In this document: piece after piece, positions 14,959 through 52,383 of the stretch
How positions within the stretch are numbered: position 1 is the first letter of the stretch
Layout of the letters: every line of letters starts with the position of its first letter
NCBI GenBank assembly: GCA_026390595.1
Contig: JAPLFQ010000032.1
Location: forward strand, 28,215-92,214
From: Ignavibacteriales bacterium
GTDB taxonomy: Bacteria > Bacteroidota > Ignavibacteria > UBA10030
Direction of reading: 5' to 3'
DNA: 64,000 nt
Made by a program: the position numbers and the translations under genes
The notes under the pieces: model-generated
Seen by the model: only the letters and a program-made list of their open reading frames with translations
What the model was told of the DNA's origin: nothing
Databases searched by the model: none

Positions 14959-15426
14959 CTACAACGATAGTGATAACAGCCGGGATGCTTCCTGTCCCCC
15001 GACGAGGTACTCATGGACAATCTGCAATTCCTGTCGCTGGCCGGGCCAGACAAGCAGCGCATGAGCTGCCGCAAGGACGCACCACGCATATTCTTGATGC
15101 TCATGCGAAAGCAGCGGCGTTTGCTCCGGGTCAGTTTCGATGGCAAAGCACGGACTGACGTGAACCGTATCGTTCGACGCATCGTAGAACGAATTTACAA
15201 AAGGTATGACCCACCATCGCAATGGAGTCAATCCTGTCTCTTCCTGAAACTCACGCATGGCGGCTCTTGCCGCTGGTTCCCCGTCATGCACCGATCCGGT
15301 AACCAACTGCCACATCCCGGGGTACAGGCTTTCGTTTTCCGATCTCTTCAGTAGCAGATACCGCGGAGCGTCCTTGTTTCGTTTGAAGACACAGACCTCT
15401 ACCGTCCGGGAGACGACATTTGACAT
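14959..15426 (-). CDS. NUDIX hydrolase
   Basis: Nudix box GSVHDGEPAARAAMREFQEETGL (GX5EX7REUXEEXGU). Confidence 0.8.
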   Translation of the reverse strand: MSNVVSRTVEVCVFKRNKDAPRYLLLKRSENESLYPGMWQLVTGSVHDGEPAARAAMREFQEETGLTPLRWWVIPFVNSFYDASNDTVHVSPCFAIETDPEQTPLLSHEHQEYAWCVLAAAHALLVWPGQRQELQIVHEYLVGGQEASRLLSLSL

Positions 15427-42692: not shown

Positions 42693-43637
42693 CTATTGTT
42701 TTCGAGCTGTCGGGATACCGAGTCTCTTCATGCGATATCGCAACGTGTCTTCGGTCATCTTGAGGAAGCGGGCGGCTCGGCTTTGATTGAATTCGAACTT
42801 CTCCAGCGTGCGCATCAGGATCCCCTTCTCGATGATCTCCATCGCGTTGTCGAGCGCGAATTCCGCCCCCTCATCGATGCGCGTGATGATGCGCGAGAGC
42901 TCTGCCTGCTCATTGACGAGCCCGGCCGGGAGCCGGAACACCTCTTTGTCGTTCGACAGCACGATGCTGCGCTCGACCATCCTCTTCAGTTCCAGGACAT
43001 TTTCCTTCCACTCCTGGCGCACGAGGACACCGATGGCATTGGAATCGATGATCATTCCTTCTATCCCGAGATCCTTGCCAACCTGAGCGACGAAATACTC
43101 CACCAACTCCGGGATATCATCGCGCCGTTCGCGGAGCGGTGAGATCATTATCATTTCCCACCGCTTTGTCTCCTCAGTGACCCCGGGGAGAACTGTCCCC
43201 GCCTTCACCGCTGCCCCGATCGGACCTTGAAGCAGGAAAATCAGGCGCAAATCGCGCTTCTCTTTCCGGAGAAAGGCGAGGAGATCACACACCGAGCTCT
43301 GAGCTGTCAGCCCCGAGCGATCGATGTCTTCGAAGATCAACGTCGTACCATCAACCAATTTGAAATTCCCATGGTCCGGGGCGATCGGGTTGTAGAGCTC
43401 TCCGCTTTGCATGGCCAAATCGACCAACTTCCTCAGCCGGCTCGGATCGATGACGGCGATGTTCAAACGAACACATGGCTTCCTGGCATCCTTGCTCTCA
43501 TTATGTATGGCTTCGGCAGTCAATCCCTTGCCGACACCCGATTCACCGATGATTACGACGTCTTTCCTGCCACGAGCCAGTCTTTTCACATCTTCACGAA
43601 GTTGCCGCGTGGCCGGACTTGATCCTACGATCTGCAT
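42693..43637 (-). CDS. Enhancer-binding-protein-like AAA+ transcriptional regulator (sigma54-interaction-type ATPase core + Fis-type HTH), lacking a GAFTGA motif and any N-terminal sensory domain
   Basis: Walker A VIIGESGVGKG, Walker B / sensor region (GTTLIFEDID), arginine-finger region (RERRDDIPELVEYF), and C-terminal HTH (RAARFLKMTEDTLRYRMKRLGI). The GAFTGA loop is replaced by AMQSGELYNPIAPDHGN. Confidence 0.7.
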   Translation of the reverse strand: MQIVGSSPATRQLREDVKRLARGRKDVVIIGESGVGKGLTAEAIHNESKDARKPCVRLNIAVIDPSRLRKLVDLAMQSGELYNPIAPDHGNFKLVDGTTLIFEDIDRSGLTAQSSVCDLLAFLRKEKRDLRLIFLLQGPIGAAVKAGTVLPGVTEETKRWEMIMISPLRERRDDIPELVEYFVAQVGKDLGIEGMIIDSNAIGVLVRQEWKENVLELKRMVERSIVLSNDKEVFRLPAGLVNEQAELSRIITRIDEGAEFALDNAMEIIEKGILMRTLEKFEFNQSRAARFLKMTEDTLRYRMKRLGIPTARKQ

Positions 43638-43659
43638 AGTGCGAAACCTTTCATTTGTC

Positions 43660-44961
43660 TCATTCTGTACGCGCCTTCGTGACGTCTTTCGTCTGTACGT
43701 CCTTTGGCTGAATGAGAAACCTCTGGTCAAGCTCGTTCGGATTCATGAATTGCCGCAACACCCAGTTGTCGAATGCGTCGCGCCAGCGGGTGATGCGGGA
43801 GGCATCGGTCGCCAACCGAATCTCATAAAAGCGACCTTCAACACTTTGAATAAATCTAAGGCGTAAGATGAAAAGGAAGAGAAGCACGATCATGATTCCC
43901 GTTGAAAGGTACATCCCAAGATGCGCGAACGCAGCATAGGCATCCCATTGCCGAACCGTTGTGAAGGCGTAGTGGTGAAGGGCTTCACAGGAACAAAACA
44001 CCAGAAGGCACCAGAGAATTTTTTCAAGGTACGCGCTCTTTGGAGGATCTGCTATGAATTGGTAAATAATGAAAACGAGTATACAACCTATTAGTAGAAG
44101 CGATATCAACACGCAACTCCTCCATAGCGGCCTGTAAACAAGCAGATATACGGCATCACCCTGACAATATGGCCACAATTCCAAAACTCGAGCCTCCTTA
44201 GCCCGAAGGACATCCTGATTCTCTGGGCGAATCCCAATCGTCAAGGGTGCGACGGACGCAATCAACGCTAAAGATGGTCGCTCCATCCCATCCTGATGAA
44301 GCTCTTGAGTCGCAAGTTGGATAGCTTTGTAGTCCTTAATATCCGTTGTTGTGTACAAGTATTTCGGGTTGGCGTAGTATGCATAGAACAAGGATATCCA
44401 TATGGTTCCGACGACAGACACAGCGATGAAGTACTTTAGAGGCAACCTCAGTTTCTGAAAGCTCAAATGAACGACAAGGAAAACCACACTCACGGCTAGC
44501 AACAGGAAATACAATTGCGTTCGGTATTGGTGCTCATAGAAACCAGCCCACGTATCAAGCGGAAACCACCACAGCTTTGCCAATTGGTACAGTTGAGTCC
44601 AGAACCCATTTATGAAGAAGACGACGGCGAGATTCACGAAAAGGGCTCTGATCTCAGGTTGGGCTTCCTTCTTAGAAAGGATCCATGAAACACTTCCGAC
44701 CAAGGCACTGGCCTCTGCAAGAACGATTACGCACACACGGTCGATACCATCCGCACTCATCGCCATCACTCCTGCGAAGTTGATGACTGCGAAGGGACAC
44801 CACATCATCAAGATTTTCTTGTAGAGTCTCATTCCTTGAAATAGGCCTGAGCCCGCTCCTTTAATAAGAAAATCGAAACTCGGTGTATCCGTCCACAGGA
44901 AAAAAAGGGTATTCATGAGCACAGCACCCCACCTGTCACTCCGAGTATACACCTTTTTCAA
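43660..44961 (-). CDS. Polytopic membrane protein (≥10 predicted TM helices), unknown family; first gene of the operon with the EBP-like regulator
   Basis: Strongly hydrophobic 433-aa ORF with no enzymatic motifs I recognise. Its stop is 22 nt upstream of the regulator start. Confidence 0.6.
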   Translation of the reverse strand: MKKVYTRSDRWGAVLMNTLFFLWTDTPSFDFLIKGAGSGLFQGMRLYKKILMMWCPFAVINFAGVMAMSADGIDRVCVIVLAEASALVGSVSWILSKKEAQPEIRALFVNLAVVFFINGFWTQLYQLAKLWWFPLDTWAGFYEHQYRTQLYFLLLAVSVVFLVVHLSFQKLRLPLKYFIAVSVVGTIWISLFYAYYANPKYLYTTTDIKDYKAIQLATQELHQDGMERPSLALIASVAPLTIGIRPENQDVLRAKEARVLELWPYCQGDAVYLLVYRPLWRSCVLISLLLIGCILVFIIYQFIADPPKSAYLEKILWCLLVFCSCEALHHYAFTTVRQWDAYAAFAHLGMYLSTGIMIVLLFLFILRLRFIQSVEGRFYEIRLATDASRITRWRDAFDNWVLRQFMNPNELDQRFLIQPKDVQTKDVTKARTE

Positions 44962-44990: not shown

Positions 44991-45029
44991 TCCGAGATAT
45001 CTCGGATAGCGATTTGCAATTCGAATCGC
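44991..45029. promoter_or_regulatory. Operator-like palindromes in the divergent intergenic region
   Basis: Perfect 16-bp palindrome TCCGAGATATCTCGGA (44991-45006), followed by the inverted repeat GCGATttgcaattcgaATCGC (45009-45029). Confidence 0.4.
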
Positions 45030-45275
45030 AACTGGAGAATTTCAGCGAAGGACTCTCCTCACCGAGCCGCCTCTCTCACCCATTGTCAATTCCAGCAATA
45101 GCAAAAGACCCTTCGATTCTTGAGAAGCGAATCTGGGAATCCTCCCATTTCTGCGAGCAAAGGATCGAACACTGCGAAAATTATGCGATTGTTGAAGATG
45201 TCCCCAATGGCATATTTCTTGACAATCGTGGCTGTCAGACATGAAAACGTCCATCCTTGGAGAGGCAGAGTAAAC

Positions 45276-45731
45276 ATGGTCGCAGAAGAACCAGTGTATT
45301 CCATTGGCAGTGTCGCCAGAATGCTTGGCGTATCAGTTTTCACGCTCAGGATGTACGAGCGTGAAGGACTGATCATCTCCCACAAATCCAACACAAAACA
45401 CAGACGCTACAGCCAGAACGACGTCGAGCGGATCAAATGCATCCGCCGCGCCATCACTGAACTGAAGTTCGGCATAGCCGGCGTCAAAGGAGTCTATGCC
45501 CTTATCCCCTGCTGGAGCATCGTCAACTGCTCCGCAGAAGACCGGGACAATTGTGCCGCATACAAGGGACACTCAAAACCATGCTGGACGCACAAACACG
45601 AGTCCAATACATGTTCCTCCAGGGTCTGCAGGCAGTGTCCAGTGTATCAGAAACTGACAGATTGCGCAAAAGTAAAAGAGAGCATATTGCTCGCCTCACA
45701 GCAGTCGCAAGCATTCACTCCTCATCCATGA
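45276..45731 (+). CDS. MerR-family transcriptional regulator with a C-terminal 8-Cys domain
   Basis: MerR HTH (YSIGSVARMLGVSVFTLRMYEREGLI) and coiled-coil region. The C-terminal cysteines are spaced C-x5-C-x6-C-x8-C-x9-C-x4-C-x2-C-x8-C. The start is set at the internal ATG; the track ORF 45120 start is an extension. Confidence 0.7.
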   Translation: MVAEEPVYSIGSVARMLGVSVFTLRMYEREGLIISHKSNTKHRRYSQNDVERIKCIRRAITELKFGIAGVKGVYALIPCWSIVNCSAEDRDNCAAYKGHSKPCWTHKHESNTCSSRVCRQCPVYQKLTDCAKVKESILLASQQSQAFTPHP

Positions 45732-45735
45732 GGGC

Positions 45736-47934
45736 ATGATGAATTCGATTTCCCGAAGACGATTCCTGAAAATCTCCGCAGCGACCGTCAGCCTCGCGGC
45801 CGCCGGATGCGCGACCAAGTCTGGAACATCAAGCCTCGGCGCGAAGGAGAAAAAGAATGGGATCCAGAAAATCCCGACCTATTGTGATATCTGCTTCTGG
45901 AAGTGCGGCGCGATTGCGTACGTCAAAGACGGTGAACTGTGGAAAATCGAAGGCAACCCGGATGATCCGCTCAGCCGCGGACGCCTTTGCCCGCGGGGCA
46001 CCGGCGGCATAGGCGCTCACACAGACCCCGACAGACTCCGCACACCGCTGATCCGCAAACGCGAGCGAGGTGAAGAAGTGTGGCAGGAAGTCACCTGGGA
46101 TGAGGCGCTGGGATACATTGCCGACAAGATGCAGAAGATCAAATCCGAATACGGACCGGAATCGATGGCGCTCTTCAGCCACGGTATCGGCGGCAACTTC
46201 CTGAAGCACACAATGAAAGCATACGGAACTCCGAACATCTCAGCCCCCTCCTTCGCCCAATGTCGCGGACCCCGCGATGTCGGATTCCGCCTCACCTTCG
46301 GCGAGGACGTCAGTTCGCCTGAACGGACGGATATCAAGAACGCCCAATGCCTGGTCCTGATCGGAAGTCACCTCGGCGAGAACATGCACAACTCCCAGGT
46401 CCAGGAGTTCGCTGACGCGATCGACAACGACGCTTCAATCATCGTCGTCGACCCGCGTTTCTCCGTTGCCGCGAGCAAGGCCAAGTGGTACCTCCCCATC
46501 AAGCCGGGGACCGATCTCGCTTTGCTTCTTGCGTGGATGAATGTCATCGTGAAGGAGAATCTGTACGACAAAGAGTATGTGACAAAACACGGATTCGGTT
46601 TCGAACAATTCGCAGCCACACTCCTCCCCTACACACCAGAATGGGCATATCCCGAAACAGGAATTGAACCAGAAGTCATACGCGCTACCGCCCGCGAGAT
46701 GGCGCGATACAAGCCGGCAACGCTCGTCCATCCGGGAAGGCACGTCACCTGGTACGGCGACGATGCACAACGCAGCAGAGCCATCGCACTGCTCAACGCA
46801 CTCCTTGGAAGCTGGGGACGCAAAGGAGGATTCTACTATCCCGTCAGCATGGACGTTCCGGCATATCCATATCCTGCCTATCCGAAGCCGGCAAGAGACA
46901 AAGTCGACAATCCGAATCACAAGTATCCTTTCGCGCATGAGACAATCACCACCGGCACCCGCGATGCTACAATATCCGGCCAACCGTATCCCATTAAAGG
47001 CTGGTTTGTTTATGCGTCCAACCTGATTCACGCACTTCCAAACGAGCAGGAGACGATCAAGGCTATCCAGAACCTCGACCTTCTCGTCGTGGTCGATGTG
47101 ATACCGAGTGAAATTGCCGGATGGGCGGACGTCGTTCTCCCCGAAGCTGTCTACCTCGAGCGGCACGACGATCTCAACGTGGAGTGGTTCAGGGATTCGT
47201 TCACAGCCCTGCGTCAACCGGTCGTCGAATCGCCTCACGATCAGAAACCGAACTGGTGGATCGCAAAGCAGCTCGCCGGGAAACTTGGCCTCAGCAGCTA
47301 TTTCCCCTGGAACGATATCGAGGAGTATTTCAAGCACCGCCTTACCGCAGCCGGACTCGATTACGATGAGCTCAGGCAAAAAGGGATCATCAGGGGAAAG
47401 AAACAGCCCAATTACTTCGAAGAAGGGGTGCCTATTGAATTCCCCACTCCTTCGGGAAAGATCGAATTCTACTCTTTGCAGCTCCAGAAGGCAGGGTTCG
47501 ACCCGGTCCCGAGATATACAAAGCCCGATCCGAATCCCCCCGGATCGTTCCGACTCCTCTACGGCCGCTCACCCGTTCATTCGTTCAGCAGGACGCATTC
47601 AAACAGGATTCTCTCCGATATGATGTCTGAGAACGAGGTATGGGTCAATGCTTCCGTCGCAGGAAGGCTGGGATTGCAGAACGCCCAGTACGTCACGCTG
47701 AAGAATCAGGATGGAGTCGTCAGCAATAGAGTGAAAGTGAAGGTGACTGAGAGAATCCGGCCGGACTGCGTGTATGTTGTCCACGGATTCGGCCATACGT
47801 CCAAAGGACTTAAACACGCCTTCCGCAAAGGTGCAAGTGATGCGCAACTGATCACCAGGTACAAGACTGATCCGCTCATGGGAGGTACGGGAATGAACAA
47901 CAATTTCGTCACCATCGAACCGGCGGAGGCGTAA
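45736..47934 (+). CDS. Tat-exported molybdopterin (bis-MGD) oxidoreductase catalytic subunit, PsrA/PhsA/TtrA-like
   Basis: Twin-arginine signal (SRRRFLKISAATVSLAAAGCA), N-terminal 4Fe-4S motif CDICFWKCG…C, and the DMSO-reductase-family MGD-binding core. 732 aa, typical of the polysulfide/thiosulfate reductase class. Confidence 0.85.
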   Translation: MMNSISRRRFLKISAATVSLAAAGCATKSGTSSLGAKEKKNGIQKIPTYCDICFWKCGAIAYVKDGELWKIEGNPDDPLSRGRLCPRGTGGIGAHTDPDRLRTPLIRKRERGEEVWQEVTWDEALGYIADKMQKIKSEYGPESMALFSHGIGGNFLKHTMKAYGTPNISAPSFAQCRGPRDVGFRLTFGEDVSSPERTDIKNAQCLVLIGSHLGENMHNSQVQEFADAIDNDASIIVVDPRFSVAASKAKWYLPIKPGTDLALLLAWMNVIVKENLYDKEYVTKHGFGFEQFAATLLPYTPEWAYPETGIEPEVIRATAREMARYKPATLVHPGRHVTWYGDDAQRSRAIALLNALLGSWGRKGGFYYPVSMDVPAYPYPAYPKPARDKVDNPNHKYPFAHETITTGTRDATISGQPYPIKGWFVYASNLIHALPNEQETIKAIQNLDLLVVVDVIPSEIAGWADVVLPEAVYLERHDDLNVEWFRDSFTALRQPVVESPHDQKPNWWIAKQLAGKLGLSSYFPWNDIEEYFKHRLTAAGLDYDELRQKGIIRGKKQPNYFEEGVPIEFPTPSGKIEFYSLQLQKAGFDPVPRYTKPDPNPPGSFRLLYGRSPVHSFSRTHSNRILSDMMSENEVWVNASVAGRLGLQNAQYVTLKNQDGVVSNRVKVKVTERIRPDCVYVVHGFGHTSKGLKHAFRKGASDAQLITRYKTDPLMGGTGMNNNFVTIEPAEA

Positions 47935-47936
47935 CC

Positions 47937-48476
47937 ATGGGGCGATTTGGAATGGTCATCGATACTGTGAAATGTGTCGGATGCATGGATTGCGTGGTTG
48001 CCTGTAAGACTGAGAACGAAGTTCCAGAAGGATTCAATCGTGACTGGATCGCACAGGACGTCACCGGCTCCTTCCCCACACTCCACATGGAAATCCGAAG
48101 CGAGCGATGCAATCATTGCGACGCTCCCCCCTGTGTGTACTGCTGCCCGACGGGAGCGAGTCACGTTCACAGCCTGGGCGGTGTAGTCCTCGTGGAACAC
48201 GGGATGTGTATCGGCTGCAAGGCCTGCCTTGCCTCCTGCCCCTATGACGCGCGGTTCATCCACCCTGATGGATATGCCGATAAGTGCACGTTCTGCATCC
48301 ATAGAGTGGAAAAGGGTTTGGATCCGGCGTGCGTCTCCGTTTGCCCGACTCATTGCATGACATTCGGCGACCTCGAAGATCCGAACAGTTCCGCGAGCAA
48401 GCTCCTCGGCTCAAGGAAGTACCACTCTTTGATTCCTGAGGCTGGCACAAAACCACAAGTGTACTATCTCACATAG
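47937..48476 (+). CDS. 4Fe-4S ferredoxin-type electron-transfer subunit (PsrB/PhsB/NrfC-like)
   Basis: Four Cys clusters (CVGCMDCVVAC, CNHCDAPPCVYCC, CIGCKACLASC, CTFC…C…C). Confidence 0.85.
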   Translation: MGRFGMVIDTVKCVGCMDCVVACKTENEVPEGFNRDWIAQDVTGSFPTLHMEIRSERCNHCDAPPCVYCCPTGASHVHSLGGVVLVEHGMCIGCKACLASCPYDARFIHPDGYADKCTFCIHRVEKGLDPACVSVCPTHCMTFGDLEDPNSSASKLLGSRKYHSLIPEAGTKPQVYYLT

Positions 48477-48484
48477 AGGACTGT

Positions 48485-49435
48485 ATGCACGAACTCACAA
48501 CTACGAGGCACAACGAGCTCGTCGATCCCGTCCTGCAGATCTGGGCATGGCAGATTCCTGTGTATCTGTTCATCGGCGGACTCGTCGCCGGGATCATGAT
48601 CATCTCCGGTTACTTTGCCCTCAAGGGTCAGTACAAGAAGAACATGTTCACAAGTTTCTACCTGCCTCACATCAGCCTCGTTCTGCTGAGCCTGGGTATG
48701 TTCTCGCTATTCCTCGATCTTGAACACAAACTGTACGTCTGGAGACTCTACACCACATTCAAGATCATGTCGCCGATGTCCTGGGGAGCATGGATACTGA
48801 TTCTCGTGTACCCTGCTCTCTGGTTGAACACACTCATCCGCATTCCGGATGCATACAAGAATATCATCCCCGTGTTTGACCGCCTGAGTGCCAGAATCAA
48901 CCAACATCCATTCTTGATCAAGAGCATTGGCACTCTCAACATGCTCCTGGGCACACTCCTTGGCATGTATACCGGCGTGCTCCTGAGTTCGATCGCCGCA
49001 AGGCCTCTCTGGAACAGCTCTATGCTTTGGATGGTGTTTCTCGTTTCCGGACTCTCGGCTGCGTCCGCGTTTGTGCACCTTGTCGCGCGCGACCCGGAAG
49101 AACGACTGTTACTCGCCAAAGCAGACAACGGCTTTCTGACCCTCGAGCTCTTTGTGATCGGCGGCTTCGTCAGCGGCTTGCTGAGCTCGACGGGAGTTCA
49201 TTCCGAAGCAGTTCTGCTCATACTCGTCGGACCGTACGCCCCAGCGTTCTGGGTGGGCGTCATCGGACTCGGCATCATCATCCCCTTGATCATTCAGATG
49301 CTGGCAGTGAACGCCAGAGTCAAACATACATCGGCAGCTCCCATTATGGTCTTGTTTGGCGGACTTCTGCTCCGCTTCGTCATCGTGTATGCGGGGCAAT
49401 ACAGCCACTACACGCATCAGGCACTATCAAGATAG
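48485..49435 (+). CDS. NrfD/PsrC-family quinol-oxidising membrane anchor subunit
   Basis: 8-TM protein with an NrfD-type N-terminus (VLQIWAWQIPVYLFIGGLVAG). Confidence 0.85.
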   Translation: MHELTTTRHNELVDPVLQIWAWQIPVYLFIGGLVAGIMIISGYFALKGQYKKNMFTSFYLPHISLVLLSLGMFSLFLDLEHKLYVWRLYTTFKIMSPMSWGAWILILVYPALWLNTLIRIPDAYKNIIPVFDRLSARINQHPFLIKSIGTLNMLLGTLLGMYTGVLLSSIAARPLWNSSMLWMVFLVSGLSAASAFVHLVARDPEERLLLAKADNGFLTLELFVIGGFVSGLLSSTGVHSEAVLLILVGPYAPAFWVGVIGLGIIIPLIIQMLAVNARVKHTSAAPIMVLFGGLLLRFVIVYAGQYSHYTHQALSR

Positions 49436-49495
49436 TACTCATTCCACTTCAACGCTGATATTCCAGGATTGATTCGAGAATCGGAGGACCAACAA

Positions 49496-50074
49496 ATGGC
49501 AACAGCAAACGAAATAGGTCTCAGTGAGTCCAAGCTTCGCACGGGGGGGCACACAGAAAGGACAGCGCAGCCGTACTGGAACCCGTACGTCGCAGGGCTT
49601 GGACTTGGGCTTGTGCTGCTCGCTTCATTCGTGATCATGGGACGCGGCTTGGGGGCATCCGGTGCATTCTCATCCCTCGTGACGGTCGGTGTCCAGGCTG
49701 TGGCACCGAATCACGTGGCTGCTAACGAATTCTATTCTGAATACGTCGGCGACGGATCAAAAAGTCCATTGAAGGACTGGCTTGTCTTCGAAGTGCTCGG
49801 AGTGTTCGTCGGCGGGTTCATCTCAGGATTGCTCGCAAATCGGGTAACAAAAGTGGTCGAACGAGGGCCCAACATCAGCAGCGCCGGACGGCTGACGCTC
49901 GCGTTCATCGGTGGAGGATTGATGGGGATCGGAGCGAAGCTCGCCCGCGGCTGCACAAGCGGCCAGGCGTTGACCGGCGGCGCCCTGTTCAATGTCGGCA
50001 GCTGGGCTTTCATGATGATGGTATTCGCCGGCGCATATGCTACGGCATACTTTGTAAGGAGACAATGGCAATGA
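49496..50074 (+). CDS. YeeE/YedE-family sulfur-compound transporter, N-terminal half (split gene)
   Basis: Conserved Cys loop (GAKLARGCTSGQALTGG) in a 4-TM half-protein. Start ATG 49496 follows GGAGGA. The track ORF start 49469 gives a 9-aa longer product. Confidence 0.75.
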   Translation: MATANEIGLSESKLRTGGHTERTAQPYWNPYVAGLGLGLVLLASFVIMGRGLGASGAFSSLVTVGVQAVAPNHVAANEFYSEYVGDGSKSPLKDWLVFEVLGVFVGGFISGLLANRVTKVVERGPNISSAGRLTLAFIGGGLMGIGAKLARGCTSGQALTGGALFNVGSWAFMMMVFAGAYATAYFVRRQWQ

Positions 50075-50670
50075 ACGCACCCTTCTTCAAATTTGGTTTA
50101 TTTGGCGATGACGTCAGTCTCGTCGTCGCATTCGTCATTGGAATCGGGTTCGGCTTCTTCCTCGAGCGGGCCGGATTCGGCAGCTCAAAGAAGCTTGCCG
50201 CACAGTTCTACTTCACCGACCTCACCGTCTTCAAGGTAATGTTCACGGCGATCATTACCGCTATGGTTGGTGTTTACTACCTTTCCGTAGTCGGTTTCGT
50301 CGATCTTTCACTCGTCTATCTGACACCCACCTTCCTGGTCCCTCAAATCGTCGGAGGTCTGATCCTCGGCGTCGGGTTCGTTGTAGGCGGATACTGTCCG
50401 GGAACATCGTGCGTCGCTGCATCGACGGGACGAGTTGACGCGATGGTCTACCTCCTGGGAATCGTTTTCGGGATTTTCGTTTTCGGCGAGGCGATCCCGT
50501 TGGTAAGCACCTTCTATCTCTCGACACCGATGGGCCAGATCACGCTTCCACAAATCTCCGGCCTCCCGTACGGTTTGATCGTGTTCCTTGTTGTGCTGAT
50601 GGCTCTGGGGGGATTTGCCGGAGCAGAGTGGGTTGAGAAGAAAATGGCGGCAAAGAAAGCGAGGGCCTGA
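50065..50670 (+). CDS. YeeE/YedE-family sulfur-compound transporter, C-terminal half (split gene)
   Basis: Second conserved Cys loop (GVGFVVGGYCPGTSCVAAS). It overlaps the first half by 10 nt. Confidence 0.75.
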   Translation: MAMNAPFFKFGLFGDDVSLVVAFVIGIGFGFFLERAGFGSSKKLAAQFYFTDLTVFKVMFTAIITAMVGVYYLSVVGFVDLSLVYLTPTFLVPQIVGGLILGVGFVVGGYCPGTSCVAASTGRVDAMVYLLGIVFGIFVFGEAIPLVSTFYLSTPMGQITLPQISGLPYGLIVFLVVLMALGGFAGAEWVEKKMAAKKARA

Positions 50671-50672
50671 TC

Positions 50673-51326
50673 ATGAAAAACCTCTTCACTGATCTCTCCC
50701 TGAACAGAAAGCTTGCCCTCTTCGTGTTCGTCCTGGGATTCCTGGCTTTATTCGCTGGAAGCCCGTACAGAGGAACGGAGCTGAAAGTCGACGCCTCTGA
50801 GATGGCAATGATCGTCCAGAAGGAAGTTGATCATGTCTCTTCTGAAGAACTGGCCGGCTGGATTGTTCAAGGGAAGGCCGATTATCGTCTTCTCGACCTG
50901 CGTACCGAGAAGGAGTTTGGCGAGTACCACATCCCAACTGCGGAAAACATGCAGCTGACGAACTTGAAAGAGGCCCAGCTGGGCAGGAATGAGAAGATGG
51001 TCTTGTACTCTGACGGGGGGATTCACTCCGCACAAGCCTGGTTTCTCCTGAAGGCCGAAGGGCACAAGGGAGTCTACATACTGCGCGGCGGGTTGGAGGA
51101 ATGGAAAGACAAAATACTCTTTCCACGACTTACCGATAACGCTTCGCCGGCCGAAGTCGCGGCGTTCGAGAAGACCAGACTCTTGAGCAAATTCTTCGGG
51201 GGATCCCCGCAGGTTGGAGGCGCTGCACAGACCACCACGCAGACGATGACGCTCCCGAAACTCGAATCCCCTACGGGAGCACAACCCAAGACAACTCCGG
51301 GAAAGAAGAAGAAAGAGGGCTGCTGA
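50673..51326 (+). CDS. Membrane-anchored rhodanese-like domain protein; active-site Cys replaced by Ser, probably non-catalytic
   Basis: Rhodanese fold (VSSEELAGWIVQGKADYRLLDLRTEKEFGEYHIPTAENM…MVLYSDGGIHSAQAWFLLKAEG…RGGLEEW). YSDGG occupies the position of the canonical Y-C-x-x-G active-site loop. The C-terminal tail is low-complexity (T/Q/K-rich). Confidence 0.7.
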   Translation: MKNLFTDLSLNRKLALFVFVLGFLALFAGSPYRGTELKVDASEMAMIVQKEVDHVSSEELAGWIVQGKADYRLLDLRTEKEFGEYHIPTAENMQLTNLKEAQLGRNEKMVLYSDGGIHSAQAWFLLKAEGHKGVYILRGGLEEWKDKILFPRLTDNASPAEVAAFEKTRLLSKFFGGSPQVGGAAQTTTQTMTLPKLESPTGAQPKTTPGKKKKEGC

Positions 51327-51442
51327 GCGGCGCTTGCATCACAGAGGAAGCGTTTGTAGCTTATCCGAAACCTTGAAGCCCTCTCTTACAATGGAGGGCT
51401 TCTCTGCTTTGAACAACTGACCTGGAACAACCGGAGTGAACA

Positions 51443-51778
51443 ATGCAAAAACCCCCTAAGCGATACCAGGATTTCTCCAAGAAGTACCGTGACATCGCGA
51501 AAGCGTACGAAGAGATGGGATCTGCCTGTCATTCGGCGGGACCGCTTGACGAAAAGACACGAGCCCTCGTCAAGCTCGCCATTTCAATCGGCGCCCGTAT
51601 TGAGGGGAGTACTCATGCACACGCCCGAAAAGCTATCGCTGCCGGTGTCAAAGCGGAGGAGCTGTACCACGTCGCACTCCTTGCCATTCCGACGATCGGA
51701 TTTCCGCCTGCCATGGCGGCGATGAGCTGGGTTGAAGATATGGTGAAACCGGAACTTCCGGCCCGCAAACGCAAATGA
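51443..51778 (+). CDS. Carboxymuconolactone decarboxylase / AhpD-like family protein
   Basis: 111 aa with the CMD-domain helix pattern and a Cys-His pair (GSACHSAG…STHAHA). Confidence 0.65.
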   Translation: MQKPPKRYQDFSKKYRDIAKAYEEMGSACHSAGPLDEKTRALVKLAISIGARIEGSTHAHARKAIAAGVKAEELYHVALLAIPTIGFPPAMAAMSWVEDMVKPELPARKRK

Positions 51779-52383
51779 CGAAGCGGTCAGATGTTCTCGG
51801 CGCGGTTCTCGCCGGCGGCAAGAGCACGCGCATGGGTACGGAGAAAGCGTTATTGCCCGTCAAAGGCCGTCCGATGATCCAGTATGCAGCTGAGACGCTT
51901 GCGAAGGTGTTTGCTGAAACTGTAATCGTTGGCGGCAGCCAGGACAAGTACGGGTTTCTGAAATGCGAGATTGTGCCGGATCTCTTTGAGGGTTGCGGTC
52001 CGCTTGGCGGTATTCATGCGGCGTTACACCGCTCCAAGCCGCGGGCTGCCTTTGTCCTGTCCTGCGACACACCATTCATCCCTGCCGATCTCATTGAATT
52101 CCTCCTCCGAGCCAAGGCGCCGGATTTGACAGTTATCGCGACATTCGACGGGGTCCTCCAACCTCTTTGCGGAGTTTATGACGCGTCGAGTTTTCCCGAA
52201 ATCGATCGAGACATCGAACAAGGCAAGTACTCCGTCTTCAAAACACTCAAGAATATCGAGCATGTAGAAATCCCAATTACGCCCGATCTCCCGTTCTTCA
52301 CTCCACAGCTATTCTGGAATATGAATCGACCTGAAGATTACCGAATCCTCTCACAACCTGACGCAGGGACTTCTCATGGCTGA
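51775..52383 (+). CDS. mobA: Molybdenum cofactor guanylyltransferase
   Basis: GAVLAGGKSTRMGTEKALLPVKGRPMI nucleotide-binding motif. 202 aa. Overlaps the CMD gene by 4 nt. Confidence 0.85.
   Translation: MTKRSDVLGAVLAGGKSTRMGTEKALLPVKGRPMIQYAAETLAKVFAETVIVGGSQDKYGFLKCEIVPDLFEGCGPLGGIHAALHRSKPRAAFVLSCDTPFIPADLIEFLLRAKAPDLTVIATFDGVLQPLCGVYDASSFPEIDRDIEQGKYSVFKTLKNIEHVEIPITPDLPFFTPQLFWNMNRPEDYRILSQPDAGTSHG

Follow-up and report, generated by a model that had tools for sequence, protein, structure and literature searches.

A gene cluster in which a MerR gene is followed by psrABC, two Sulf_transp (DUF395) genes and a rhodanese gene was described by Thiel et al. (2019) in Candidatus Thermonerobacter, and in the part of that paper that deals with the cluster it is argued to serve sulfur metabolism, with homologous psrABC genes given for Melioribacter roseus (MROS_1774-1776, with the MerR gene MROS_1773) and for Ignavibacterium album (IALB_1661-1663) (PMC6338057). 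By contrast, in the passages of Gavrilov et al. (2017) on MROS_1774 the gene is almost silent in aerobic, microaerobic and fermentative (1 mM sulfide) cells and is proposed to encode the main arsenate reductase (PMC5492636). As far as these passages go, the papers on the published cluster thus disagree on its function, with sulfur metabolism in the one and arsenate reduction in the other. Here we analyse the same cassette in a window of 64,000 nt from the metagenome-assembled genome of an Ignavibacteriales bacterium (contig JAPLFQ010000032.1), where the window means the whole stretch of DNA analysed, all coordinates are window positions and all cassette genes lie on the + strand. In the passages that concern it the published cluster is treated at the annotation level, and these make no mention of the loop Cys that is missing from the rhodanese-like protein, of its Cys tail, of its fusion to the transporter or of its topology. 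The cassette is neither unique nor unnoticed, yet it is uncharacterised. In the following we describe its anatomy and conservation, the clade of its catalytic subunit, the invariant Cys tail and the fusion, and then propose a model of what the cassette might do.

The cassette begins with the gene of a MerR-like regulator (45276-45731; Pfam MerR_1, PF13411, 3.3e-15), for which the start ATG at 45276 was picked from the alignment of homologues while the mechanical open reading frame (ORF) starts at 45120. This gene ends 4 bp 5' of psrA and is part of the unit. It is followed by the PsrA-like catalytic subunit (45736-47934), with a twin-arginine translocation (Tat) signal and the Pfam domains Molybdop_Fe4S4, Molybdopterin and Molydop_binding; by a PsrB-like four-cluster ferredoxin (47937-48476; Fer4_11, 2e-23), in the translation of which the Cys fall into four groups for [4Fe-4S] clusters and a signal peptide is lacking; and by a PsrC/NrfD-type integral membrane anchor, quinol-binding in type (48485-49435; NrfD, 3e-35). 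There then come two half-size YeeE/YedE genes, both matching Sulf_transp (PF04143), half 1 (49469-50074; 2.6e-22, profile positions 162-309), the start of which is probably ATG 49496 rather than TTG 49469, and half 2 (50065-50670; 8.7e-15, profile positions 2-160), and finally the gene of a membrane-tethered rhodanese-like protein of 217 residues (50673-51326; Rhodanese, 3.5e-17). The order psrA-psrB-psrC-yeeE half-yeeE half-rhodanese, which the first-pass annotation had given for these six ORFs on the + strand, agrees with the ORFs and with their Pfam and NCBIfam domains.

From merR to the rhodanese gene the successive distances are 4, 2, 8 and 33 bp, a 10-bp overlap and 2 bp. After the rhodanese stop, the 116 bp that precede the next start hold the best-ranked terminator-like hairpin of the region (51375-51402, + strand), with a 10-bp G+C-rich stem followed by UCUGCUUUG, a folding energy of -19 kcal/mol and z = -4.39, with 0 of 200 shuffles folding equally well, and it is likely that this hairpin marks the end of the operon. 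In the same terminator ranking no comparable terminator was found upstream of the rhodanese stop within the cassette, and this, together with the tight packing, is in keeping with the earlier claim that the transporter genes are grouped with psrABC.

It is noted that the arrangement is conserved far beyond chance. A scan for PsrA over one genome per species gave at least 261 relatives, and the locus counts draw on the 80 best of them (73-92% identity). All six genes stand in the same order in 60 of the 60 PsrA-anchored loci that extend 5.75 kb past the psrA start, with PsrC (NrfD) found in every one of these complete loci and with the two YeeE halves always between psrC and the rhodanese gene in the cassette clade. 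A second scan, anchored on the rhodanese in metagenomes, used motifs specific to the cassette rhodanese and thus samples this rhodanese clade only; in it, YeeE half 2 lies directly upstream of the rhodanese gene in 51/51 loci, and psrA lies about 4.9 kb upstream in all 18 of the loci with enough upstream sequence. The coupling of reductase and transporter that was claimed before thus stands up to the neighbourhood analysis. The same does not hold for the statement that the architecture is unusual, since a close relative of PsrA is found in no fewer than 261 species-level genomes and the cluster is already described in the relevant passages of the 2019 paper (PMC6338057). In 49 of 77 loci the MerR gene immediately precedes psrA, these being for the most part loci of Bacteroidota, Ignavibacteriota and the Chlorobi group.

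The best 80 carriers are metagenome-assembled genomes (MAGs) and genomes of Bacteroidota, Ignavibacteriota, Chlorobi-type bacteria, Gemmatimonadota, Acidobacteriota, Opitutales (Verrucomicrobiota) and Calditrichota, together with one Alphaproteobacteria MAG; one cultured species, Stygiobacter electus, is among them, and Melioribacter-type MAGs (L044, L070) hold the entire cassette. The divergence of PsrA tracks that of PsrB, PsrC, YeeE half 2 and the rhodanese (Spearman rho 0.58-0.77), which argues that the genes of the cassette travel together. Moreover, because PsrA remains 73-80% identical between phyla, the sequences suggest that the whole cassette has spread laterally.

We now consider the catalytic subunit. 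PsrA has the Tat motif SRRRFLK, kept in 114 of 120 homologues, the [4Fe-4S] motif C-x2-C-x3-C-x27-C and the domains that bind bis-molybdopterin guanine dinucleotide (bis-MGD). Its best NCBIfam model is PhsA (NF012032, Salmonella-type) with 508 bits, which is below the cut-off of 694 and compares with 499 bits for Thermus PsrA and 541 bits for Stygiobacter PsrA. The ArrA model (NF041714) gives only 148 bits against a cut-off of 1600 and the TtrA model (NF011567) 58 bits against 1750, while the DmsA/YnfE models score at most 242 bits. The closest solved structure is that of Thermus thermophilus PsrA (2vpw-2vpz), matched over the full length with E 2.6e-213 and 45% identity, as compared with E 3e-40 for the ArrA in the PDB. 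The residues aligned to Thermus H145, C173 and R332, with numbering counted on the alignment, are conserved, and the aligned active-site stretches read FFGHGTG/LFSHGIG, SLCTAPR/AQCRGPR and PTRHNVWYG/PGRHVTWYG. We take the three Thermus residues to be the Mo-ligand Cys and the neighbouring His and Arg.

The first-pass annotation had left the placement of this subunit between PsrA, PhsA, TtrA and ArrA to be settled, with a position among non-sulfur enzymes (Arr, Ser) as what would speak against it. Judged from the scores on the curated hidden Markov models just named and from the structure match, PsrA is a member of the Psr/Phs clade, distinct from Arr and Ttr. Note also that a reading of PsrA as a Tat lipoprotein, from an AAAGC in the signal peptide, is ruled out, the Cys not being conserved in the 120 homologues. 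A gene for a TorD/NarJ-type maturation chaperone is absent here and among the recurrent neighbours of the related loci.

Of the two YeeE halves, half 1 resembles the C-terminal YeeE repeat and aligns to residues 233-329 of Spirochaeta thermophila YeeE including C293, and its Cys162 (ARGCTSGQ) is invariant in 67/67 sequences. Half 2 resembles the N-terminal repeat, aligning to residues 6-115 including C91, with an extra C-terminal helix and a Lys/Arg-rich tail, and its Cys111 (GGYCPGTS) is invariant in all 66 sequences. Two adjacent half-size Sulf_transp proteins with one conserved membrane Cys each are what is found in a split YedE1E2-type channel. The profile scores are low, with 35 bits on the TsuA models (cut-offs 400-645) and with 45 and 29 bits on the best NCBIfam model, that of the selenium-associated YedE/FdhT (cut-off 350). 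A TusA-like gene, the partner that is called YeeD or TsuB, is absent from the cassette and from its recurrent neighbours.

In eight Opitutales-type loci half 2 is fused in frame, via the transmembrane helix of the rhodanese-like protein, to the rhodanese domain and tail, and these fusions argue for a physical association of channel half 2 with the rhodanese. In one of the eight, the Lacunisphaera MAG L003, an in-frame TAG (15323-15325) lies within the rhodanese domain of the fused gene; since the seven remaining fusions are intact, a pseudogene or a mistake of the assembly is the probable cause. Family-wide, the N-terminus of half 2 is negative and its C-tail positive (3.4 Lys plus Arg), while the rhodanese has 3.2 Lys plus Arg ahead of its transmembrane helix and, beyond this helix, a net charge close to 0. 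This charge bias, read with the positive-inside rule, and the YeeE-transmembrane-rhodanese fusions lead us to predict that the rhodanese domain lies in the periplasm together with its Cys arm, where it would share the side of the Tat-exported PsrAB. The TusA/YeeD partner of a full-length YeeE is, by contrast, cytoplasmic, and it is on this ground that we depart from the earlier suggestion that a rhodanese here sits in the place of TusA.

The rhodanese-like protein itself, for which an NCBI record of an identical protein exists, consists of a transmembrane helix (residues 10-27), a rhodanese domain and a tail of some 40 residues that is predicted to be disordered. In the active-site loop Ser113 stands in place of the canonical Cys (LYSDGGIHS), so that the Cys which opens a catalytic loop (C-x4-R/T) is lacking. 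Nevertheless the loop YSxGGIHSAQ is invariant in 42 rhodanese sequences, as are FFGG, PKL and the tail KKKKEGC, and the invariance despite the loss of Cys argues that the loop is still under selection; only 2 of about 70 loci have a loop with LCSEGG. The protein had been called Cys-less, which is correct for the loop but not for the protein, as every homologue read (about 70 loci) ends with KKKKEGC and a stop, with K to R variants in some lineages and with Cys as the last residue. The stop codon after this Cys varies between TGA, TAG and TAA, and the Cys is therefore the true C-terminus. A read-through of the TGA after Cys217 as selenocysteine was considered and is rejected, because the homologues stop at the same place with TAG or TAA and the sequence downstream is not conserved. 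In the AlphaFold 2 model the rhodanese domain has values of the predicted local distance difference test (pLDDT) mostly of 86-93, and residues 197-217 fall below 50; a Foldseek search with the model gave only generic single-domain rhodaneses, among them GlpE and, at rank 36, Sud (1qxn). In the literature passages that concern such clusters, there appears to be no description of the relocated Cys, of the conserved tail, of a fusion between channel and rhodanese or of a placement in the periplasm.

Upstream of psrA, the MerR-like regulator shows a feature of its own. Its helix-turn-helix matches Pfam as given above, and its C-terminal domain, which matches no Pfam or NCBIfam model, has eight Cys conserved in 46 homologues (PCW-x4-C-x7-C-x9-PCW-x10-C-x5-C-x2-C-x11-C); this domain could hold Fe-S clusters or bind thiophilic effectors. 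In the aligned upstream regions an element TGGCAT-N5-TTGACA-N8-TGTCAG is seen at 45208-45238 (+ strand), at a distance of 57-68 bp from the start of merR. Of 58 merR-bearing loci 26 have the complete motif, mostly 37-69 bp 5' of merR, and its 20-bp dyad (45219-45238), which often reads TTGATATTTATAAATATCAA, when counted by itself occurs in 29/58 loci as compared with 26 of 2900 shuffles, about 50-fold over the shuffles. The element is a plausible candidate for the MerR operator and promoter of an autoregulated operon, although its spacing also resembles that of a sigma-54 -24/-12 site, with GA in place of GC, and a gene similar to sigma-54 activators is close by. An 18-bp palindrome at 45014-45031 was considered as the operator too and was dropped, as it is missing even from the closest loci.

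Downstream of the hairpin lie the genes of a CMD/AhpD-family protein (51443-51778, + strand; Pfam CMD, 2.4e-15) and of MobA, molybdenum cofactor guanylyltransferase (51775-52383, + strand; NCBIfam MobA, 2.6e-38), which the first-pass annotation had attached to the cassette. The shared strand and the 116-bp gap are as it had stated, but the hairpin intervenes and the linkage of both genes is loose: among 81 loci, CMD lies no farther than 9 kb from psrA in 14 and MobA in 28. MobA could plausibly assist in providing the bis-MGD cofactor. The CMD protein has no AhpD-type CxxC, with EGSTHAH at that place, and its NCBIfam matches are weak, among them those to the AhpD domains of arsenite-methyltransferase and MduS selenoproteins and, equally weak, to 4-carboxymuconolactone decarboxylase. 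The genes that flank the cassette in the window are ordinary carbohydrate, CoA-ligase and amino-acid genes. On the - strand, 2 kb upstream of the cassette, there is a sigma-54 activator-like gene without receiver domain (42693-43730), adjoined by a gene for a 433-residue multi-pass membrane protein with no family match (43660-44961); in the related loci, similar activator genes flank the cassette in 8 and the multi-pass membrane protein in 5.

To see what accompanies the cassette elsewhere, neighbour clusters were tallied over about 80 loci, and those shared by 4 or more were taken as recurrent. The most frequent is a FadL/Toluene_X-type outer-membrane channel (17 loci), usually adjacent and co-directional. 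FadL-type channels pass hydrophobic molecules and would suit S8. There is no such channel in this window, examples elsewhere being L014 16824-18437 and L003 8408-9853. Next comes a cytochrome b/DUF4405-multihaem protein (14 loci), perhaps belonging to an independent module of quinol-linked electron transfer; in the one locus where a Rieske protein was seen as well, L003 (15663-18840, Lacunisphaera), this protein and a 925-residue cytochrome b/DUF4405-multihaem fusion lie 3' of the cassette. The other recurrent neighbours are a protein of metallo-beta-lactamase (MBL) fold plus rhodanese, similar to persulfide dioxygenase (9 loci), CoA-disulfide reductase (CoADR)-rhodanese (8 loci), OsmC (7 loci), thioredoxin (6 loci) and an ArsR-type regulator (7 loci), the last being ambiguous. 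As for arsenic resistance, no ars cluster recurs in 4 or more of the approximately 80 loci, and only ArsR-type regulators do.

Based on these observations we propose a model in which the cassette provides a quinol-linked reductase of sulfane sulfur, of the polysulfide type, with a Cys-arm carrier tethered to a YedE1E2-type channel. We prefer this model because of the relationship of PsrA, the precedent of a Sud-like partner, the retained Cys of the channel and the sulfane-sulfur neighbours, namely the FadL-type channel, the MBL-rhodanese and CoADR-rhodanese, and we hold it tentatively, with slightly less than even confidence. In the model, the horizontally shared operon merR-psrA-psrB-psrC-yedE half-yedE half-rhd would build a periplasm-facing, quinol-fed molybdoenzyme of the Psr/Phs type, which would reduce sulfane sulfur (polysulfide or S0-derived) to sulfide. 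The tethered rhodanese-like protein, lying in the periplasm and having kept its anion-binding loop, would handle the substrate, and its only Cys, at the end of the flexible Lys-rich arm, would carry the persulfide or polysulfide, in the manner of Sud for the Psr of Wolinella and of the arm of SoxY. The carrier would be attached to the two-subunit YedE1E2-type channel, with one essential Cys per half, through which the same sulfur species would cross the inner membrane, and the Cys-rich MerR regulator would turn the operon on. What we infer here is that the rhodanese domain is periplasmic, that its tail acts as a carrier, what the substrate is and which way transport runs. A further step may be imagined, which we consider rather doubtful, namely that the rhodanese-like protein represents a novel type of sulfur carrier in the periplasm, with its catalytic Cys shifted from the loop to the tip of a conserved swinging arm rich in Lys and with a YedE-type channel to which it is attached, and that Psr acts on a protein-bound persulfide passed directly between the channel and the Mo site, in a substrate-channelling supercomplex that links cytoplasmic sulfane sulfur to periplasmic quinol-driven reduction.

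Several points weigh against the proposed sulfane-sulfur reductase. In this enzyme family the substrate is not readable from the sequence, and the PsrA clade holds no assayed enzyme; the cassette encodes neither a TorD-like chaperone nor a TusA-like partner; the topology rests on the positive-inside rule and on a reading of the YeeE repeat architecture; and the AlphaFold 2 model gives no placement or docking of the Cys tail. In addition, M. roseus, with merR-psrABC at MROS_1773-1776, respires Fe(III), arsenate and nitrite, as found by Kadnikov et al. (2013), and its growth was not stimulated by sulfur, thiosulfate or sulfite (PMC3534657), while in the passages on its expression the transcript of MROS_1774 is negligible with 1 mM sulfide and strongly increased with arsenate (PMC5492636). 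These data are real evidence against a growth-supporting sulfur respiration and keep a role in arsenate or thioarsenate reduction alive. Arsenate induction and the lack of growth on sulfur and thiosulfate are the sole experimental data for an orthologue, and the sulfur-oxyanion respiration of the first-pass annotation is thus not established. If the arsenate reading is true, PsrA would be a non-Arr dissimilatory arsenate or thioarsenate reductase acting on As(V) in the periplasm, the Cys-rich MerR would sense As(III), and the Cys-tailed rhodanese and YedE proteins would handle As(III) or As-S species. Besides the induction of the M. roseus psr/phsA gene and its proposed part as the major respiratory arsenate reductase in an organism where Arr is absent, again according to the expression passages (PMC5492636), and the respiration of arsenate but not of sulfur or thiosulfate (PMC3534657), it can be adduced that the Melioribacter-type MAGs L044 and L070 carry the whole cassette and that one Lacunisphaera locus adjoins ArsR, ArsP_1 and thioredoxin genes. 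Monothioarsenate is, moreover, a structural analogue of thiosulfate. Still, the induction evidence in those passages is reverse-transcription quantitative PCR of one gene, without activity assay or mutant, and it could reflect a thiophilic metalloid triggering the Cys-rich sensor indirectly. The same passages give M. roseus a further enzyme induced by arsenate, one of the Ttr type that is encoded next to arrTSR-like and ars genes (PMC5492636), and in a paper of 2026 it is enzymes related to Ttr that are named as the non-Arr candidates (PMC13608581). The link to M. roseus covers MROS_1773-1776, with M. roseus outside the best 80 loci; the ArrA model gives the 148 bits against 1600 noted above; and over the approximately 80 loci no ArsC, Acr3 or ArsB cluster recurs, whereas sulfane-sulfur genes do. 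On balance we judge the arsenate reading, which is the strongest rival of our model, unlikely, though to be kept in view.

It could also be argued that the cassette encodes a Phs-like thiosulfate reductase, which would split thiosulfate in the periplasm to sulfide and sulfite, the channel moving thiosulfate or sulfite and the rhodanese domain binding the anion. PhsA is indeed the best NCBIfam model of PsrA, the source databases label homologues as 'thiosulfate reductase / polysulfide reductase chain A', the loop conserved in the rhodanese forms a cradle that binds anions, and the characterised full-length YeeE/TsuA, the structures of which (PDB 6leo, 8j4c) are matched by the halves, imports thiosulfate. 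However, the 508 bits lie under the cut-off of 694 and are no better than the 499 bits of Thermus PsrA, the TsuA matches are very weak (35 bits as compared with 400-645), the growth of M. roseus was not stimulated by thiosulfate (PMC3534657), and the C-terminal Cys arm would be left without a role, which makes thiosulfate reduction distinctly unlikely to our mind. Quite improbable, too, is an operation in the oxidative direction, where PsrABC would oxidise sulfide with menaquinone and load the Cys arm, and YedE would import the product for persulfide dioxygenase or CoA-persulfide enzymes, in a sulfide detoxification independent of sulfide:quinone oxidoreductase. It is in line with such a direction that the MBL-rhodanese and CoADR-rhodanese genes recur nearby, that many carriers, going by taxon names and general knowledge of lifestyle, appear to be facultative aerobes, and that in vitro the Psr of Wolinella is able to oxidise sulfide when given an analogue of quinone; yet these genes occur in only 8-9 of about 80 loci, and we know of no established physiological sulfide dehydrogenase of the Psr type. 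YedE1E2 transport is reported as import only (PMC10812762), which fits the oxidative direction as well, but in the passages on its expression the M. roseus gene shows no induction by 1 mM sulfide (PMC5492636). Another chalcogen oxyanion, for example selenite or tellurite, might finally be the substrate, as for the Srr of Bacillus selenitireducens, and the YeeE halves do match best, albeit weakly, the selenium-associated YedE/FdhT model; their 45 and 29 bits are, though, far under its cut-off of 350, no selenium-utilisation genes recur near the loci, and the TGA after Cys217 is no selenocysteine codon, the homologues using TAG or TAA. The Srr selenite reductase likewise belongs to the Psr/Phs clade and has rhodanese genes in its operon. 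We regard the reduction of selenite or tellurite as very improbable.

The matter is of some consequence, as the cassette is common and is routinely labelled 'polysulfide/thiosulfate reductase' in metagenome surveys, while the sole experimental hint is of arsenate; knowing the substrate would alter the sulfur and arsenic cycling that is inferred from thousands of MAGs. If the proposed sulfane-sulfur reductase with its Cys-arm carrier and its coupling to YedE is true, there would be a new way for poorly soluble or reactive sulfane sulfur to reach a Mo active site, and on the outer side of the membrane a definite partner protein could be assigned to YedE1E2-type channels.

It remains to compare the cassette with the known systems part by part. 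With PsrABC of T. thermophilus it shares the Tat-exported bis-MGD subunit, the four-cluster ferredoxin, the membrane anchor and a rhodanese gene that follows them. The Thermus locus differs in that a gene for a TorD-like chaperone lies directly upstream of psrA and YeeE genes are absent, that the anchor is of the shorter NrfD_2 type (253 residues), and that the rhodanese is a soluble protein of 146 residues with a cleavable signal peptide, a catalytic Cys (IIIYCGIGHRG) and no Lys-Cys tail. At a psr locus in Chloroflexota, likewise without YeeE genes, the last gene encodes a lipoprotein made up of four rhodanese domains, all of which have YCASGHR. As Thermus and Chloroflexota show, a rhodanese gene after psrABC is ordinary, and the rhodaneses of both are periplasmic and retain their catalytic Cys.

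As regards the arm, SoxY also has its substrate-carrying Cys at the end of a flexible C-terminal arm, GGCGG. The likeness is one of mechanism only, as the folds are immunoglobulin-like and rhodanese and the ends GGCGG-COOH and KKKKEGC-COOH, respectively; a domain search of the rhodanese-like protein found the rhodanese as its sole domain and no homology to SoxY. The partners differ as well, SoxY working with SoxAX, SoxB and SoxCD and the cassette protein standing beside a Mo enzyme and a channel, and a covalent loading of the tail would be by analogy.

As regards the channel, the split YedE1E2 of Cupriavidus pinatubonensis imports zero-valent sulfur and needs one Cys per half (PMC10812762). 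The cassette has the same adjacent half-size Sulf_transp genes with one conserved membrane-embedded Cys each, its halves being of about 200 residues as compared with about 135 in Cupriavidus, and with weak similarity to the characterised proteins (E ~1e-3). In comparison with YeeE/TsuA and YeeD/TsuB, the cassette has an extra C-terminal helix on half 2 and no TusA/YeeD-like cytoplasmic partner, and its attached partner is predicted to be periplasmic. That partner may be set beside Sud of Wolinella succinogenes (1qxn), a periplasmic protein of rhodanese fold proposed to pass sulfane sulfur to Psr. Sud is soluble and holds the sulfur on its canonical loop Cys, whereas the cassette rhodanese has Ser in the loop, has the C-terminal Cys as its sole Cys, is tethered to the membrane and is sometimes fused to the channel.

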